Assembly (NCBI RefSeq): GCF_050920415.1 | Contig: NZ_CP169309.1 | DNA: 64,000 nucleotides | Strand: one strand, 5' to 3' | Source of the DNA: Escherichia coli | Lineage (GTDB): Bacteria; Pseudomonadota; Gammaproteobacteria; Enterobacterales; Enterobacteriaceae | In this document: positions 1-38,202 of the stretch, piece by piece | Position numbering within the stretch: the first letter of the stretch is position 1 | How the letters are laid out: each line of letters opens with the position of its first letter | The notes under the pieces: model-generated | The model's input: only the letters and a program-made list of their open reading frames with translations | The model's database searches: none | What the model was told of the DNA's origin: nothing | Translations under genes and position numbers: made by a program

Positions 1-63
1 CTGAAGTATGATGAAGCGCCGAGTAACGTTGCTCAGGCCGTAATTGAAGCCCGTGGTAAATAA
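1..63 (+). CDS. fusA: Elongation factor G, 3' terminal fragment (gene starts upstream of window)
   Basis: Frame 1 translates to LKYDEAPSNVAQAVIEARGK-stop, the EF-G C-terminus; followed 70 bp later by tufA as in the str operon. Confidence 0.85.
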   Translation: MKYDEAPSNVAQAVIEARGK

Positions 64-76
64 GCCTAAGGGTTAA

Positions 77-1318
<1,242 letters not shown>

Positions 1319-1342
1319 TTACACGTTAATTAGTTTCGAATT

Positions 1343-1369
1343 AAAAAGGGCGCTTCGGCGCCCTTTTTG
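1343..1369 (+). terminator. Rho-independent terminator of str operon (after tufA)
   Basis: GC hairpin GGGCGCTTCGGCGCCC flanked by A-run and followed by TTTTT, 25 bp after tufA stop. Confidence 0.8.
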
Positions 1370-1442
1370 CTGCCCGTAATTTGAGCTCGAAATATTTAGT
1401 CGTAATTTCACTCGCTGAACTATGGCGCAAATTAAACTGTGC

Positions 1443-1467
1443 TATTGTAATCATAACCATTCTCATT
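1443..1467 (+). promoter_or_regulatory. Putative Fur box upstream of bfd-bfr
   Basis: ATTGTAATCATAACCATTCTCATT resembles the AT-rich hexamer-repeat Fur consensus (GATAATGATAATCATTATC); bfd is a known Fur-regulated gene. Confidence 0.4.
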
Positions 1468-1500
1468 TACACTTTGCGCAGAATTTGAACGGGAGCAATC

Positions 1501-1695
1501 ATGTACGTTTGTTTGTGTAATGGTGTAAGTGACAAAAAAATTCGCCAGGCAGTCCGTCAGTTTCATCCGCAATCTTTCCAACAATTGCGTAAGTTTATTC
1601 CTGTGGGAAATCAATGCGGTAAGTGCATTCGCGCCGCGCGCGAAGTGATGCAGGACGAGTTGATGCAGATGCCAGAATTTAAAGAGATTGCCTGA
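1501..1695 (+). CDS. bfd: Bacterioferritin-associated ferredoxin (64 aa, 2Fe-2S)
   Basis: ORF MYVCLCNGVSDKKIRQAV...CGKC; Cys motifs and position directly upstream of bfr. Confidence 0.93.
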   Translation: MYVCLCNGVSDKKIRQAVRQFHPQSFQQLRKFIPVGNQCGKCIRAAREVMQDELMQMPEFKEIA

Positions 1696-1767
1696 AGCCC
1701 ACGCTTATTTTTTGACATCCCGCTAGCCCCATCTACGCTCTAATAGTGGAAGCGGAGGGACTATAAA

Positions 1768-2244
1768 ATGAAAGGTGATGTTAAAATCATAAATTATCTC
1801 AATAAACTATTGGGAAATGAGCTTGTCGCAATCAATCAGTATTTTCTCCATGCCCGGATGTTTAAAAACTGGGGCCTGATGCGTCTCAATGACGTCGAAT
1901 ACCATGAATCTATTGATGAGATGAAACACGCTGATAAATATATCGAGCGTATTTTGTTTTTAGAAGGAATCCCTAACTTACAGGATTTAGGCAAACTGGG
2001 GATTGGTGAAGATGTCGAGGAGATGCTGCAATCCGACCTGCGATTAGAACTGGAAGGCGCGAAGGATCTCCGTGAGGCTATCGCGTATGCCGACAGCGTT
2101 CATGACTATGTTAGCCGTGATATGATGATCGAGATCCTTGCCGATGAAGAAGGTCATATTGACTGGCTCGAAACTGAGCTGGATCTCATCGGTAAAATCG
2201 GTTTACAAAATTACCTGCAATCACAAATAAAAGTTAAAGATTAA
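1768..2244 (+). CDS. bfr: Bacterioferritin (158 aa)
   Basis: [40 protein letters not shown]..., canonical Bfr length and sequence. Confidence 0.96.
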
Positions 2245-2708
2245 CGGCCTGCCAGCAAACTATCCCAGCCTACAACGAAACCCGCAGCCGCCAGAAATGG
2301 CCCAAACGGCAGCGGGTTTTTTAATGACTCTTTTCCTCTCATGAGCAGACCAATAACTACGGCTCCGCAAGCGAATGAGGCAGCAAGGAAAACCAGTCGT
2401 GGCAAGAAGGTCCATGTATGCCAGGCACCAAGGGCGGCGAGAAACTTCACATCACCATAGCCTAATCCTTCTTTATGACGCAGTATGCGATACCCCCAGT
2501 AAATGACAGCGAATGTGCCGTAACCAATAATCGCCCCCCATAACGCATCGGCTAAACCGTCAGGATTACAAATCTGATAGAACAAAAGACCTGACCAGAG
2601 TAACGGGCACGTAAATCTGTCAGGTAACAAGCCATGATTTGCATCCCAGAAAAAAAGTAGGGCTGATAAACAAGCGTACAAAATCAGAAAGGGAAGGGTA
2701 GTGTCCAT
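2241..2708 (-). CDS. hopD: Short prepilin (leader) peptidase, peptidase A24 domain only (155 aa)
   Basis: ORF with multiple TM segments and [14 protein letters not shown] motif typical of type IV prepilin peptidases; occupies the position of gspO next to bfr; stop overlaps bfr stop by 4 nt (convergent). Confidence 0.8.
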
Positions 2709-2881
2709 AAAACATCCTCTGTAATTGGAGTATCACCATCGAATAACTGCGGATGCTCAGCAACAGAGAAATCGCTGATTTGTTAACCTGATTCCGGTGA
2801 AAAACGCTATCTTCACAACCTTACAAATTTCGTGGAATGCAGCTCGCAATCTGCGCGTTGCGATTAATTTCTACCCGATGC

Positions 2882-2909
2882 TTGCGTCAGGCTCAGATTT
2901 GCGTATAAT
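2882..2909 (+). promoter_or_regulatory. S10 operon promoter (-35 TTGCGT / 16-bp spacer / -10 TATAAT)
   Basis: Hexamers at 2882-2887 and 2904-2909; predicted start ~2916 gives a 172-nt leader to rpsJ ATG at 3087, matching the known S10 leader length. Confidence 0.6.
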
Positions 2910-2915
2910 GCGCGG

Positions 2916-3398
<483 letters not shown>

Positions 3399-3418
3399 TC
3401 AGGTCATTGAGCGATTGA

Positions 3419-5814
<2,396 letters not shown>

Positions 5815-5827
5815 TTTTAGAGGATAA

Positions 5828-6109
<282 letters not shown>

Positions 6110-6114
6110 GGTAG

Positions 6115-8043
<1,929 letters not shown>

Positions 8044-8067
8044 TACAGTACACTCTCTCGATACGAA

Positions 8068-8099
8068 TAAACGGCTCAGAAATGAGCCGTTTATTTTTT
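8068..8099 (+). terminator. S10 operon rho-independent terminator
   Basis: Hairpin ACGGCTCA-gaaa-TGAGCCGT followed by TTTATTTTTT, 25 bp after rpsQ stop. Confidence 0.8.
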
Positions 8100-8130
8100 C
8101 TACCCATATCCTTGAAGCGGTGTTATAATG
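8100..8130 (+). promoter_or_regulatory. spc operon promoter (extended -10 TGnTATAAT)
   Basis: TGTTATAAT at 8121-8129 immediately downstream of S10 terminator and ~80 bp upstream of rplN. Confidence 0.5.
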
Positions 8131-8195
8131 CCGCGCCCTCGATATGGGGATTTTTAACGACCTGATTTTCGGGTCTCAGTAGTAGTTGACATTAG

Positions 8196-9458
<1,263 letters not shown>

Positions 9459-9469
9459 GGTAGGGTTAC

Positions 9470-9778
<309 letters not shown>

Positions 9779-9805
9779 TTGTCACCAATTGAATCACGGG
9801 AGTAA

Positions 9806-11113
<1,308 letters not shown>

Positions 11114-32663: not shown

Positions 32664-32783
32664 TGCCTGGCGGCCGTAGCGCGGTGGTCCCACCTGACCC
32701 CATGCCGAACTCAGAAGTGAAACGCCGTAGCGCCGATGGTAGTGTGGGGTCTCCCCATGCGAGAGTAGGGAACTGCCAGGCAT
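32664..32783 (+). rRNA. rrfD: 5S ribosomal RNA (120 nt), first copy
   Basis: TGCCTGGCGGCCGTAGCGCGGTGGTCCCACCTGACCCCATGCCGAACTCAGAAGTGAAACGCCGTAGCGCCGATGGTAGTGTGGGGTCTCCCCATGCGAGAGTAGGGAACTGCCAGGCAT. Confidence 0.97.
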
Positions 32784-32835
32784 CAAATTACGAAGAATGG
32801 CACTGACCTTTGAGGCAGTTCACTACTCGATAAGA

Positions 32836-32930
32836 GAGTAGGACAAAAGCGAAAGCTTTTGAACGTTGCGAAGCAACGGCCCGAAGGGTGAATCGCGAAG
32901 TGATTCATAAACTGCCAGGCATCAAATTAA
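32836..32930 (+). repeat. rrn distal spacer module copy 1 (GAACGTTGCGAAGCAACGGCCCGAAGGGTG hairpin + 5S 3'-end fragment AACTGCCAGGCATCAAATTA)
   Basis: Imperfect direct repeat of 33243..33345; includes a ~20-nt copy of the 5S 3' terminus. Confidence 0.7.
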
Positions 32931-32934
32931 GCGT

Positions 32935-33047: not shown

Positions 33048-33167
33048 TGTCTGGCGGCAGTAGCGCGGTGGTCCCACCTGACCCCATGCCGAACTCAGAA
33101 GTGAAACGCCGTAGCGCCGATGGTAGTGTGGGGTCTCCCCATGCGAGAGTAGGGAACTGCCAGACAT
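33048..33167 (+). rRNA. rrfF: 5S ribosomal RNA (120 nt), second copy
   Basis: TGTCTGGCGGCAGTAGCGCGGTGGTCCCACC...GGGAACTGCCAGACAT; near-identical to first 5S copy with terminal-helix variants. Confidence 0.96.
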
Positions 33168-33172
33168 CAAAT

Positions 33173-33213
33173 AAAACAAAAGGCTCAGTCGGAAGACTGA
33201 GCCTTTTGTTTTA
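33173..33213 (+). terminator. rrnD terminator T1
   Basis: AAAACAAAAGGCTCAGTCGGAAGACTGAGCCTTTTGTTTTAT: long hairpin with flanking A/T tracts immediately after second 5S. Confidence 0.8.
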
Positions 33214-33242
33214 TCTGTTGTTTGTCGGTGAACACTCTCCCG

Positions 33243-33345
33243 AGTAGGACAAATCCGCCGGGAGCGGATTTGAACGTTGCGAAGCAACGGCCCGGAGGGT
33301 GGCGGGCAGGACGCCCGCCATAAACTGCCAGACATCAAATCAAGC
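33243..33345 (+). repeat. rrn distal spacer module copy 2 (with 5S 3'-end fragment AAACTGCCAGACATCAAAT)
   Basis: Shares GAGTAGGACAAA...GAACGTTGCGAAGCAACGGCCCGGAGGGTG...AAACTGCCAG(A/G)CATCAAAT with 32836..32930. Confidence 0.7.
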
Positions 33346-33346
33346 G

Positions 33347-33377
33347 AAAGGCCATCCGAAAGGATGGCCTTTTTGCG
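33347..33377 (+). terminator. rrnD distal terminator (T2-like); bidirectional with yhdZ 3' end
   Basis: AAAGGCCATCCGAAAGGATGGCCTTTTTGCG hairpin plus T-run; lies 20 bp from the yhdZ stop on the opposite strand. Confidence 0.75.
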
Positions 33378-33396: not shown

Positions 33397-34155
33397 TTAA
33401 TGGATAACCTGCGATAAAAATGCCCTCGTACGCTCCGATTTAGGATGCGCAAAAAATTCATCAGGTGTAGCTTGTTCCACTATCTCCCCACGATCCATAA
33501 AAATCACCCGATCAGCGACGGTTCGCGCAAATCCCATCTCGTGCGTTACGCACAACATTGTCATACCCGACTGCGCCAGCCCAATCATCGTATCCAGCAC
33601 TTCTTTTACCATCTCCGGATCGAGCGCCGATGTGGGCTCATCAAACAACATAATTTTCGGCTTCATACACAGCGAGCGCGCAATGGCAACACGTTGCTGC
33701 TGACCACCAGAAATCTGTCCTGGAAACTTCTGGGCATGTTCGGCAATTCTCACCCGCTCAAGGTAATGCATCGCCAGAGCTTCAGCCTCTTTCTTAGGCA
33801 TCTTGCGTACCCAAATCGGTGCCAGGGTACAGTTCTGTAGAACGGTCAGATGAGGGAAGAGATTGAAATGCTGAAAGACCATTCCCACTTCCTGCCTGAC
33901 GCGCTCAATATTGCGGATATCTTCATTAAGTTCGATGCCATCCACCACGATCCGTCCCTGTTGATGTTCTTCCAGATGATTAATACAACGAATGGTTGTC
34001 GATTTACCGGAACCAGAAGGGCCACACAGAACGATCCGTTCTCCCGGTTGCACGGTTAAATTTATATTTTTCAAAACATGGAATTGTCCATACCATTTAT
34101 TGACGTTTTCCAGCGTAATCATCGCGTTAGCAGGTTGCAGTAAAATTTGGCTCAT
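33397..34155 (-). CDS. yhdZ: Polar amino-acid ABC transporter ATP-binding protein (252 aa)
   Basis: ORF with Walker [13 protein letters not shown] signature [15 protein letters not shown], Walker [12 protein letters not shown]. Confidence 0.93.
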
Positions 34156-34162
34156 AGTGTCC

Positions 34163-35266
34163 TCAATGCGGTGTACGCCCGGTGTTAAAACGTTTTTCCA
34201 GATGTTGGCTATAACGTGACATGCTGAAACAGAAGATCCAGTAAATCAGTGCGGCGAAAACATAACCTTCCGTCGACATACCCAACCAGGCGGGATCAAC
34301 GGTTGCCTGCTGAACGCTACTGAAAAGATCGAACAACCCGATGATGATCACCAGGCTGGTATCTTTGAAGAGTGCGATGATGGTATTTACCAGCCCAGGA
34401 ATCACCAGCTTCAACGCCTGTGGCAAAATAACCAGCCCCTGGGTTTTCCAGTAACCCAACGCCAGCGACTCTGCCGCTTCATATTGCCCTTTAGGCAGCG
34501 CCTGTAATCCGCCTCGCACGACTTCCGCAACATATGCTGACTGAAACAGGATCACGCCAACCAGCGCGCGGATCAATTTGTCGATACTGGTGCCTTCTGC
34601 CATAAACAACGGCAGCATGACCGAAGACATAAACAGAACGGTAATCAGCGGTACACCGCGCCAGAACTCGATAAAAATGACCGATAAGATACGCACAATC
34701 GGCATATGGGAGCGGCGACCTAACGCCAGTAAGATCCCCCACGGCAGCGCCCCCGCAATCCCAACTGATGCAATAATTAAAGTGAGCGTCAGCCCGCCCC
34801 ATTGCCGGGTTTCAACCCGCTCAAGACCAAGAAACCCGCCATACATCAGCCACCAGACAATCAGTGGGTAAATCACCGCCCATACCGCAATATAGCGACC
34901 GCGATGCGGGAGTATTTTCCAGAACATTGGTGCGATAGAAACAAGGCCAATCAGTAATGCCAGGTTAATTCGCCAGCGTTGGTCGTGTGGGTAGAGCCCA
35001 TACATAAACTGACCGAATCGTTCGTGGATGAAGACCCAACAGGCACCTGCTTTTGTGCAGTCGGCACGCGTTGAGCCAACCCAATTAGCCTGCAAAAATG
35101 CCCAGTTCAGCAACGGTGGGATCAGTTCCCACATCAACCATATGCAGCCAATAGTCAGCAGGCTATTGCTCCAGCTGGAGAACAGATTTTTTCGCACCCA
35201 CACCATCGCGCGGCTTGAGTTATGGCTCGCCGGGCGCGGGGGATGAGACAGCAATACTTTTGTCAT
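34163..35266 (-). CDS. yhdY: Amino-acid ABC transporter permease (367 aa)
   Basis: [16 protein letters not shown]... multi-TM permease; yhdWXYZ operon order. Confidence 0.9.
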
Positions 35267-35275
35267 CATGACTCC

Positions 35276-36457
35276 TTAGCGTTCAACGATCGCGATGCGG
35301 CGGTTATAGATATTCATCAGCAGCGAGATAGTCAGGCTGATAATCAGATAGACCGACATGGTCATGGCTATCGTCTCGATGGCTTGCCCCGTCTGGTTCA
35401 GCACGGTGCCAGCAAACAGCGAAACCATATCGGGATAGCCAATAGCGGCGGCAAGAGAGGAGTTTTTGACGATGTTGAGATACTGGCTGGTTAACGGTGG
35501 AATAATCACCCGCAGTGCCTGGGGAATAATGACCTGGCGTAGCGTAACCGGGTTGGGTAATCCCAGTGACCGAGCAGCTTCATGTTGACCATAAGGCACT
35601 GCCTGGATCCCAGCGCGGATAATCTCGGCGATAAATGCAGAGGTATAAACCGAAAGTGCCAGCGTTAAGGCTGCCAGTTCAGGAATTAAAACCATCCCGC
35701 CACGGAAGTTAAAGCCTCGTAGGGCTGGAACATCCCAGTGTAGTGCTGCGCCAAAAAGCCATTGCGCCAGTAAAGGCAAACCGATGATCAACACAACGGC
35801 GACCGGCCAGGTTCGGCGCAATTGTCCGGTCTTTATCTGGTACGTTTTATTAAAACGGAATATTCCAACAGAAATGGCTATAGCAATAACAACAGTCAGG
35901 ATAAACGCAATAAATCCGTCTCCCAGCTGCGGCGACGGAATATAAAGCCCACGATTGCTTAAAAAGGCCAGATCAAACGCACTCACTGCCTGGCGTGGTC
36001 CGGGCAAATTGCGCAACACGGCAAAGTACCAGAAGAAGATTTGCAGTAGCGGCGGAATATTACGGAAGATCTCAATATAAATTGTGGAAAGCTTTCGTAG
36101 CAGCCAGTTATCCGAAAGTCGTGCCAGACCGATAAAGAAGCCCAGAACAGAAGCGAATACAATACACAATGCAGAAACCAGCAGCGTATTGAGTAAGCCA
36201 ACAATGAAAACGCGTCCGTAGGTATCACCCTGCTGGTAATCGATCAAATGCTGGACAATACCGAAGCCAGCGCCGCGATCCAGAAAGGCAAAACCCGAAG
36301 TAATGCCACGATTACTGAGATTCGTCACAGTGTTGTGAAATAGCCAACCAACAATGCCGACAACAGCAACAACGGCAAGGATCTGGAATAACCAGGCGCG
36401 AACCGTAGGGTTGGCAAAGGAGAGTGAGCCTTTAACGGTTGAGCGGCGATGAGACAT
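35276..36457 (-). CDS. yhdX: Amino-acid ABC transporter permease (393 aa)
   Basis: ORF (from internal Met) MSHRRSTVKGSLSFANPTVRAWLFQILAVVAVVG... multi-TM. Confidence 0.9.
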   Translation of the reverse strand: MSHRRSTVKGSLSFANPTVRAWLFQILAVVAVVGIVGWLFHNTVTNLSNRGITSGFAFLDRGAGFGIVQHLIDYQQGDTYGRVFIVGLLNTLLVSALCIVFASVLGFFIGLARLSDNWLLRKLSTIYIEIFRNIPPLLQIFFWYFAVLRNLPGPRQAVSAFDLAFLSNRGLYIPSPQLGDGFIAFILTVVIAIAISVGIFRFNKTYQIKTGQLRRTWPVAVVLIIGLPLLAQWLFGAALHWDVPALRGFNFRGGMVLIPELAALTLALSVYTSAFIAEIIRAGIQAVPYGQHEAARSLGLPNPVTLRQVIIPQALRVIIPPLTSQYLNIVKNSSLAAAIGYPDMVSLFAGTVLNQTGQAIETIAMTMSVYLIISLTISLLMNIYNRRIAIVER

Positions 36458-36524
36458 AGAAACCTCGGAAAGCATAACGCTGAAGAGAGCGCCGCCGTAG
36501 CGACGCTCGTTACCTCACACCGAC

Positions 36525-37550
36525 TTAACGCACGGGCGGCGCGTACTGAATACCGCCGTTATTCCAGAGATTATTTTGCCCACGTTTAATCTTCAGGGGG
36601 CTTTCTGAACCTACGTTACGCTCAAAAATTTCCGAGTAATTACCCACCTGTTTGATGATGTTGTAAGCCCATTTATTATCCAGCTTCAGATCTTTACCGT
36701 AATCGCCCTCTTTACCCAGCAGATGCGCCATATCAGGCGTTGCAGGATTAGCCGCTTTTTCATCAACGTTTTGCGAATTAACGCCCATCTCTTCAGCATT
36801 CAGCATGGCGAAAAGCGTCCAGCGCACTATAGAGAACCATTCATCATCGCCACGACGAACTACCGGCCCAAGCGGTTCTTTAGAGATAACTTCCGGTAAA
36901 ACAATCCATTCAGCTGGGTTGCTTAATTTGATGCGCAGGGCATACAGTTGTGATTGATCCGAGGCCAGCGTATCGCAGCGGCCAGATTCCAGTGCCTTCG
37001 CGGATTCGTCAGAGCGATCGAAAGTCACTGGTGTGTACTTCATATTGTTTGCCTTGAAGTAATCGGCGACGTTGAGTTCGGTATCAGTACCCGCCTGAAT
37101 ACAGACTGTTGCGCCATCCAGTTCTTTCGCGCTTTTTAATCCCGCTTTATCGTGCGTCAGGAAACCAATGCCGTCATAATAAGTGACGCCAGTAAATGCC
37201 ATTCCCATACCGGCATCGCGAGAGGAAGTCCAGGTCGTATTACGGGAGAGCAAATCCACCTCCCCTGACTGTAAAGCCGTGAAGCGTTCTTTTGCAGTGA
37301 GCGGGGTATATTTCACTTTCGTGTCGTCACCAAATACAGCTGCCGCAACACCACGACAAACATCTACATCAATACCTGAAAACTTACCGTCAGCATCGGC
37401 ATAAGAGAACCCAGGTAATCCATCACTGATCCCGCATTGCACAAAACCTTTTTTCTGAACGGCATCAAGCGTCGCGCCAGCATGCGCCTGATTTGCAACG
37501 GCAAGCAGCACGCTGGCGGCAGCCAGTGTGGCTATCATCATCTTTTTCAT
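36525..37550 (-). CDS. yhdW: Periplasmic amino-acid-binding protein of ABC transporter (341 aa, signal peptide), intact
   Basis: ORF MKKMMIATLAAASVLLAVANQAHAGATLDAVQKKGFVQCG...; cleavable signal peptide; first gene of yhdWXYZ. Confidence 0.9.
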   Translation of the reverse strand: MKKMMIATLAAASVLLAVANQAHAGATLDAVQKKGFVQCGISDGLPGFSYADADGKFSGIDVDVCRGVAAAVFGDDTKVKYTPLTAKERFTALQSGEVDLLSRNTTWTSSRDAGMGMAFTGVTYYDGIGFLTHDKAGLKSAKELDGATVCIQAGTDTELNVADYFKANNMKYTPVTFDRSDESAKALESGRCDTLASDQSQLYALRIKLSNPAEWIVLPEVISKEPLGPVVRRGDDEWFSIVRWTLFAMLNAEEMGVNSQNVDEKAANPATPDMAHLLGKEGDYGKDLKLDNKWAYNIIKQVGNYSEIFERNVGSESPLKIKRGQNNLWNNGGIQYAPPVR

Positions 37551-37980
37551 AATGCTTCCTGTGAGGCGAAAATTATCGTTATAGGACGTTTGGGAAACGT
37601 CTTTTACCTGTCTGTGGCCATCCTCTTATAAGCAAAAGTAGTGCCAGCTTTTGCGCACGATTTCGCGTCGCAATAAGCTGAGTGTAGACAGGAAATAATA
37701 AAAACAGCGCCCCGCAATGGTGCGAAAATGAAACATGCGCCACATTTTGGCGCAAAATATTTACGCATTTTTTACTAAGCAGAATAATGATTGTTAGCGT
37801 GAGTATATTTCTGGTAGGAAGTGTGAAAATTAAATTGATGCGTTATTTCGAAAGCAGCGAAATAACGCGATATAACATGCTAAATCAGCAGGGAATTACC
37901 CAGCAGAATATAGCAATATTTTATCTTATGGAGAGATACTGTATCGTTAAACAGAGCGCGGTACTCCGCGCCCTGTTCAG

Positions 37981-38202
37981 TTATTTCGACAGAGCGATGA
38001 TCCCCATCGTCAGGCCAGCAACAGCTGCTGCCCCGCCAGCAATAGCCCCAGCCGTTTCCCAGTTATCCTGAGTCGTGCCTTTCATACAGGTATTGGTGTG
38101 AACCAGTCGACCCTGATCGTCATAAACCGGAACGCAGGGCGAATCGTGAGCACAGCCCGCCAGCAATGCGGTGAGCAATGCTACAGGAATTAATCTTTTC
38201 AT
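37981..38202 (-). CDS. yhdV: Small lipoprotein YhdV (73 aa)
   Basis: ORF MKRLIPVALLTALLAGCAHDSP... lipobox LAGC; Gly/Ala-rich C-terminal TM segment. Confidence 0.85.
   Translation of the reverse strand: MKRLIPVALLTALLAGCAHDSPCVPVYDDQGRLVHTNTCMKGTTQDNWETAGAIAGGAAAVAGLTMGIIALSK

Follow-up and report, generated by a model that had tools for sequence, protein, structure and literature searches.

An intact yhdW in Escherichia coli probably completes an ancestral polar amino-acid ABC importer that carries a frameshift in K-12

In the 64,000-nucleotide stretch of Escherichia coli DNA that we analysed (the window), the six-frame list of open reading frames gives yhdW as one uninterrupted ORF of 341 aa, read with an ATG start from the minus strand at 36525..37550. 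Together with its neighbours it very probably forms an ancestral and functional polar amino-acid ABC importer of the AapJ/BztA type, yhdWXYZ, and the lesion of the gene in K-12 would be both lineage-specific and recent. A first-pass annotation of the same DNA had described an intact yhdW of 341 aa with a signal peptide as part of a complete yhdWXYZ transporter. The ORF list bears out both statements, with the coordinates exact, and the yhdX, yhdY and yhdZ ORFs are likewise intact and have the lengths of their MG1655 counterparts. The genes and the sites that border them are as follows.

33347..33372, minus strand: terminator-like site 3' of yhdZ, an 11-bp stem followed by a T-rich tail (hairpin in the sequence)
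33397..34155, minus strand: yhdZ, ATPase of 252 aa (ORF; 4 aa differences from MG1655 YhdZ)
34163..35266, minus strand: yhdY, permease of 367 aa (ORF; PF00528; 4 aa differences from MG1655 YhdY)
35276..36457, minus strand: yhdX, permease of 393 aa (ORF; PF00528; 8 aa differences from MG1655 YhdX)
36525..37550, minus strand: yhdW, periplasmic substrate-binding protein (SBP_bac_3 domain and a C-terminal extension of ~90 aa)
37555..37560, minus strand: ribosome-binding site AGGAAG, 4 nt 5' of the yhdW ATG (block conserved across 80 upstream regions)

The DNA is 100% identical to the locus in E. coli MFDS1022581 (NZ_CP169399.1), where the PGAP annotation has four intact genes. In Pfam, YhdW matched PF00497 (SBP_bac_3) with 59.7 bits against a gathering cut-off of 26.4, and YhdX and YhdY matched PF00528 (BPD_transp_1), the HEQRo 3-TM domain TIGR01726 being above cut-off in both; the Walker motifs and the signature ISGGQQQR are visible in the YhdZ translation. 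A family-3 binding protein with an export signal, two permeases and an ABC ATPase in one operon is the composition of a PAAT-type transporter. The permease domain matches are confined to part of YhdX (393 aa) and of YhdY (367 aa). Permeases of the Aap/Bzt type are ~370-400 aa long instead of ~220-240 aa.

The best match of YhdW among solved structures was 4z9n (E=7.6e-122), which aligned over residues 22-341, that is the whole mature protein, with four cysteines conserved, whereas other family-3 structures aligned only to about residue 250. YhdW therefore shares the C-terminal extension that marks the AapJ/BztA type. The first-pass annotation had proposed a comparison of its architecture with that of AapJ and BztA, and the outcome is full-length homology to 4z9n with the extension included. 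The PDB entry is named only as a periplasmic amino-acid-binding protein, and "Brucella ovis BztA" is the naming of Borde et al. (May 2026; bioRxiv 10.64898/2026.05.04.722672), a preprint on which we draw throughout. Against the NCBIfam equivalogs for Lys/Arg/Orn, Glu/Asp, cystine and Gln binding proteins, YhdW gave sub-threshold matches only (80.6 bits against a cut-off of 375 for GltI, 35.9 against 303 for GlnH). Since all of these matches fall below cut-off, YhdW stands apart from the classical E. coli systems.

The export signal was read from the translation.

37479..37550, minus strand: signal peptide MKKMMIATLAAASVLLAVANQAHA, codons 1-24, predicted cleavage before G25

The N-terminus of YhdW, MKKMMIATLAAASVLLAVANQAHA followed by GATL, is built like a Sec signal peptide, with n-, h- and c-regions and an AXA motif. 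Nearly all of the 80 orthologues described below retain AHA before G, and the mature PDB chain 4z9n aligns from YhdW residue 22. Borde et al. purified the Citrobacter rodentium YhdW from the periplasmic fraction. YhdW would be exported by Sec, with cleavage of its signal peptide after Ala24, and would capture a polar amino acid in the periplasm. Asparagine is the most probable ligand if the C. rodentium result carries over, and from YhdW it would pass to the two permeases YhdX and YhdY, driven by the ATPase YhdZ, a direction and a role that we infer.

The case for asparagine comes from the same preprint. When C. rodentium YhdW was screened by thermal shift against all 20 amino acids, a strong shift was obtained with Asn alone, and ITC gave a Kd of 0.37 uM for Asn, with Val binding undetected. 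A C. rodentium mutant is reported to have no Asn-uptake phenotype in vitro, and yhd mutants of this species to have a colonisation defect in mice. The first-pass annotation had called the substrate not established. This is partly outdated, in that binding is now reported for the C. rodentium protein. By analogy with the orthologue, we would lean slightly towards asparagine as the physiological substrate of the E. coli system.

The same genetics could also belong to a transporter of broad specificity, either general (Aap-like) or for Glu/Gln/Asp/Asn (Bzt-like), rather than to an asparagine-specific one. The closest solved structure, 4z9n under its preprint name, points in this direction, as do the reported ranges of the R. 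capsulatus BztABCD, which takes Glu/Gln/Asp/Asn, and of the R. leguminosarum AapJQMP, which is broad (both cited by Borde et al.). The spread of the sub-threshold NCBIfam matches over four substrate families and the C. rodentium mutant's lack of an in-vitro Asn-uptake phenotype are consistent with it as well. We nevertheless consider broad specificity unlikely, though well short of negligible, given that the C. rodentium protein responded strongly to Asn only, bound it with sub-micromolar affinity and gave no Val binding.

Upstream of yhdW we found the following elements.

37631..37646, minus strand: sigma54 -24/-12 element TGGCACTACTTTTGCT, TGGCAC-N5-TTGCT (perfect match; inferred start near 37620)
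37708..37754, minus strand: two conserved dyad-symmetric elements, TGCGCCAaaatgTGGCGCA at 37736-37754 and GCACCattgcggGGCGC at ~37708-37724 (conservation profile and palindromes)

The sigma54 element is the sole match in the 64-kb window, where 0.12 would be expected by chance, and in every one of the 79 orthologous loci with enough upstream sequence TGGCAY-N5-TTGCW recurs 91-115 nt 5' of the ATG. The two dyads, TGCGCCA-N5-TGGCGCA and GCACC-N7-GGCGC, are centred at about -125 and -96 from the inferred start. Activator sites normally lie ~100-140 bp upstream of the start, and the NtrC consensus is 17 bp long. The dyads are candidate enhancer sites for a sigma54 activator, and their assignment to NtrC over ZraR would be our inference. 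The spacer of the 7-5-7 arrangement is two bases longer than in the 17-bp consensus, and either NtrC or ZraR may bind there.

A sequence identical to the sigma54 element of the window is a sigma54 ChIP-seq site in K-12, 70 nt from yhdW (PMC4591121), and an NtrC ChIP-seq peak lies at yhdWXYZ in K-12 (PMC4066584). The promoter yhdWp matches the consensus perfectly, yet it was among the weakest sigma54 promoters tested (PMC7045595). Borde et al. report ZraR as a regulator of yhdWXYZ. Transcription would start from the sigma54 promoter ~70 nt upstream of yhdW and would require an enhancer-binding activator. Because a sigma54 promoter needs such an activator, the operon would be on mainly under nitrogen limitation; the activator documented in K-12 is NtrC, with ZraR reported as well.

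A further conserved element lies between yhdW and yhdX.

36487..36508, minus strand: stem-loop with a 9-bp GC-rich stem and a 4-nt loop (RNAalifold, 81 sequences)

The stem-loop begins 17 nt past the yhdW stop codon, ends 29 nt short of the yhdX start and lacks a trailing T-run. RNAalifold on 81 Enterobacteriaceae sequences gave compensatory changes in eight of the nine pairs. At the stem-loop 99.4% of cells were paired, none of 500 shuffles reached that value, and the slid controls gave 33-54%. The stem-loop probably stabilises the yhdW message or partly terminates transcription, which would raise the ratio of binding protein to membrane complex and leave the former in excess. The available part of Borde et al. 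has no mention of this structure.

We then turned to related species. A scan of species-representative genomes gave 482 relatives, of which the best 80, with 90-99% amino-acid identity, were kept; they span Escherichia, Citrobacter, Enterobacter, Kosakonia, Phytobacter, Trabulsiella, Lelliottia, Cedecea, Atlantibacter, Yokenella, Siccibacter and others. Among these best 80 of 482, all 80 Enterobacteriaceae representatives have an uninterrupted 341-aa yhdW ORF, and yhdW-X-Y-Z is collinear in 78 of the 80 loci, the remaining two being cut by contig ends. The window yhdW differs from that of C. amalonaticus at 183 nucleotides and at only 7 amino acids. Across species the dN/dS of yhdW was 0.004-0.014 (Nei-Gojobori, seven comparators, with dS saturated). 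The low dN/dS and the 80 intact ORFs indicate strong purifying selection and argue against a silent or decaying locus. To have yhdW intact is the rule, and the window strain follows it.

We judge it very improbable that the ORF is intact here by chance in a locus which, as elsewhere, is silent or in decay, and which would then be cryptic everywhere. The promoter does depend on sigma54 and had low activity in reporter assays (PMC7045595), the complete C. rodentium system gave no in-vitro growth phenotype in the work of Borde et al., and some strains carry IS1 insertions at the locus. Set against these are the selection and the uniformly intact ORF just described, the conservation of the promoter and the ribosome-binding site, the intercistronic hairpin maintained with compensatory changes, and the colonisation defect that Borde et al. 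report for C. rodentium mutants in mice.

Within E. coli, the order acrEF-yhdV-yhdWXYZ-rrnD end is the same in the MG1655 and MFDS1022581 annotations, and the window is 97.7% identical to MG1655 in DNA over a collinear block of 13.7 kb. The yhd genes of the window (33397-37550) are 3-4.8% divergent from K-12, against ~2% in acrEF, and nearly all of the changes are synonymous. The window yhdW allele is at least 99% identical to that of only 20 of ~5,400 E. coli genomes. Import of the allele from another Escherichia species was considered and rejected: it is closest to E. coli alleles (40-47 nt differences), with 70-85 nt differences to representatives of the cryptic clades and 174-202 to other genera. 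It is a rare E. coli allele and reflects ordinary within-species diversity.

Two observations concern the flanks of the operon. The small lipoprotein gene yhdV (73 aa, 37981-38202, minus strand) precedes yhdW in 74 of the 80 loci, with 78-100% identity; the association may be a functional link or mere synteny. At the rrn end, ~150 nt (32782-32934, plus strand) separate the 5S rRNA gene from tRNA-Thr(GGT), where the gap in MG1655 is 12 nt. The insert resembles the post-5S distal region that recurs at 33166-33340, and a near-full-length match (at least 80% of the query) was found in 571 of 5,426 E. coli genomes; the insert is thus a common variant of this end of the rrn operon. Rfam gave no families in the spacer between 5S and tRNA-Thr beyond 5S, tRNA and 23S.

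The first-pass annotation had described yhdW as a pseudogene in K-12 MG1655 and had proposed an alignment with b3268 in order to locate the lesion. The description was correct: RefSeq annotates b3268 as a pseudogene of 1025 bp, and the alignment places the lesion at a single base.

37483, minus strand: the A that is deleted in E. coli K-12 and present here, gene nt 68, in codon 23 CAT (His) (alignment to MG1655)

Compared with the window, MG1655 yhdW lacks this one A and has 40 substitutions in 1026 nt, of which only 2 change an amino acid once the frame is restored; the K-12 gene is neither full length nor in frame. The deleted A sits within the signal peptide, in the context GGCGC[A]TGCTGG, which has no homopolymer. 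Frame 0 of the K-12 gene runs into a stop after 78 residues, and the remainder of the protein is open in another frame. The loss of one A in codon 23 shifts the frame within the signal peptide and leaves a 78-aa product without the binding domain. As read from the sequence, the first possible restart codon lies 3' of the signal peptide, and a restart product in K-12 would therefore be unable to reach the periplasm. The proposal that the locus is functional here and cryptic in K-12 stands in so far as yhdW is intact here and frameshifted there; "cryptic" is too strong a word, as deletion of yhdWXYZ in K-12 has phenotypes, namely sensitivity to lomefloxacin and mecillinam in the report of Borde et al.

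We searched 5,426 complete E. coli genomes with a 70-mer across the nt-68 lesion and with the corresponding intact 71-mer. The deletion probe was found exactly in 355 genomes and the intact probe in 3,609; most of the others differ by point substitutions. That the K-12 pseudogene is a sequencing or annotation artefact, the gene really being intact, can be dismissed with near certainty: a single-base indel is in principle possible as an assembly error, and nothing else was found in its favour, whereas the same deletion recurs in 355 independently sequenced complete genomes from many K-12 sublines, its site is no homopolymer, and Borde et al. describe the nt-68 deletion independently.

We inspected the 60 best-ranked deletion carriers and 60 sampled evenly through the 355; except for one mosaic assembly with K-12-identical DNA, every one derives from laboratory K-12. 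Carriers include MG1655, BW25113, DH1, DH5alpha, C600, J53, NCM3722, MC4100, JM109, TG1 and S17-1, and the deletion is older than the split of the K-12 sublines. The clinical blood isolate 744 has a yhdW that equals the K-12 allele at all 1025 positions and has the A in addition. As the K-12 allele exists there with the A retained, K-12 acquired its lesion in one recent mutation, the allele being otherwise undamaged.

The odd carrier, "EcN_Sk" (NZ_CP172017.1), was considered as an independent nt-68 deletion outside K-12, and this was rejected, its yhdW having 0 differences from that of MG1655. Its 10-kb acrS-yhdZ locus (1-10194) is identical to K-12 except for four tight clusters of mismatches. 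The genome is of 5.06 Mb and is labelled as a Nissle-type stool isolate; a frameshift lies in one of the clusters, that in acrF. The pattern suggests a hybrid strain with mosaic K-12-like DNA, or a mixed or mis-polished assembly, and no second deletion event.

Other lesions were seen at the locus in two further genomes. In strain 2015C-3121 (NZ_CP027340.1, positions 655-1528 of locus L086) an inserted IS1A separates the sigma54 promoter from the yhdW ATG; the ORF is intact and lies ~870 bp from its promoter instead of 96. This insertion is a different route to silencing the yhdW operon. In another genome (H40, EC-07) an IS1 adjoins yhdX and most of yhdW is lost.

Much of this had been described before. 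In 2012 yhdW' was used as a neutral pseudogene insertion site (PMC3467084), and a 2020 preprint presents yhdWXYZ as an amino-acid transporter under NtrC control for which the yhdW frameshift predicts loss of function. For K-12, Borde et al. give the deletion of a single A at nucleotide 68, which shifts the frame from residue 23 and leaves a product of 78 aa; they also describe the system as conserved in E. coli and Citrobacter and the locus as degraded in Shigella, and they have 4z9n as the best structural neighbour. The K-12 lesion is already annotated and published, and the genetic part of their work is independently reproduced here. As the annotation and the literature already cover the finding, the intact yhdW adds no new biology. 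The additions are minor: the count of the lesion's distribution, the evidence for a single recent event, the covariation-supported intercistronic hairpin, and an intact operon with its sigma54 promoter in far more Enterobacteriaceae genera than Borde et al. surveyed.

The idea of a scavenger relevant to colonisation has likewise been proposed by Borde et al.; the hairpin and the much wider distribution are what the present analysis adds to it. Extended by analogy, wild E. coli may have a working, NtrC-induced, high-affinity scavenger of asparagine or polar amino acids that is important in gut colonisation, with the stem-loop setting the excess of binding protein. We offer this tentatively and hold it to be doubtful in its full form. 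If it were true, decades of K-12 work on nitrogen physiology and amino-acid transport would have missed one transporter. K-12 is an incomplete reference for E. coli nutrient transport, as a strongly conserved, nitrogen-regulated importer is without its binding protein in every subline.

Compared to the known systems, YhdWXYZ belongs to the same superfamily as GltIJKL, GlnHPQ, HisJQMP and ArtPIQMJ, with SBP_bac_3, BPD_transp_1 with HEQRo 3-TM, and one ATPase. It differs from these classical E. coli systems in length, YhdW being ~80-100 aa longer and YhdX and YhdY ~150 aa longer than the corresponding permeases. With BztABCD of R. capsulatus and with 4z9n it shares homology over the full mature length and the ~90-aa C-terminal extension that is absent from ordinary family-3 proteins; YhdW and 4z9n are ~60% identical (by eye, from the alignment). 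The Bzt and 4z9n systems are alphaproteobacterial, and the range reported for Bzt, Glu/Gln/Asp/Asn, is wider than the Asn-only binding that Borde et al. report for C. rodentium YhdW. The Aap system has the gene order of YhdWXYZ (binding protein, two long permeases, ATPase), and regulation by nitrogen status is reported for both, but Aap is of broad specificity with reported uptake and efflux. That YhdW is an AapJ homologue, and YhdZ a member of KEGG K09972, is stated by Borde et al., and the likeness to AapJ rests on their statement. The K-12 yhdWXYZ has the same locus and synteny and an identical sigma54 promoter, and differs in that its yhdW is frameshifted whereas that of the window is intact. 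YhdWXYZ of C. rodentium, from a different genus, is an orthologous four-gene operon with an intact binding protein; its YhdW is probably ~93% identical to that of the window, judged from the reported 85/89/92% for YhdX, YhdY and YhdZ together with the medians of our own comparison. The Citrobacter species among the 80 loci, which do not include C. rodentium, have a YhdW that is 95-98% identical, with the same promoter and hairpin.
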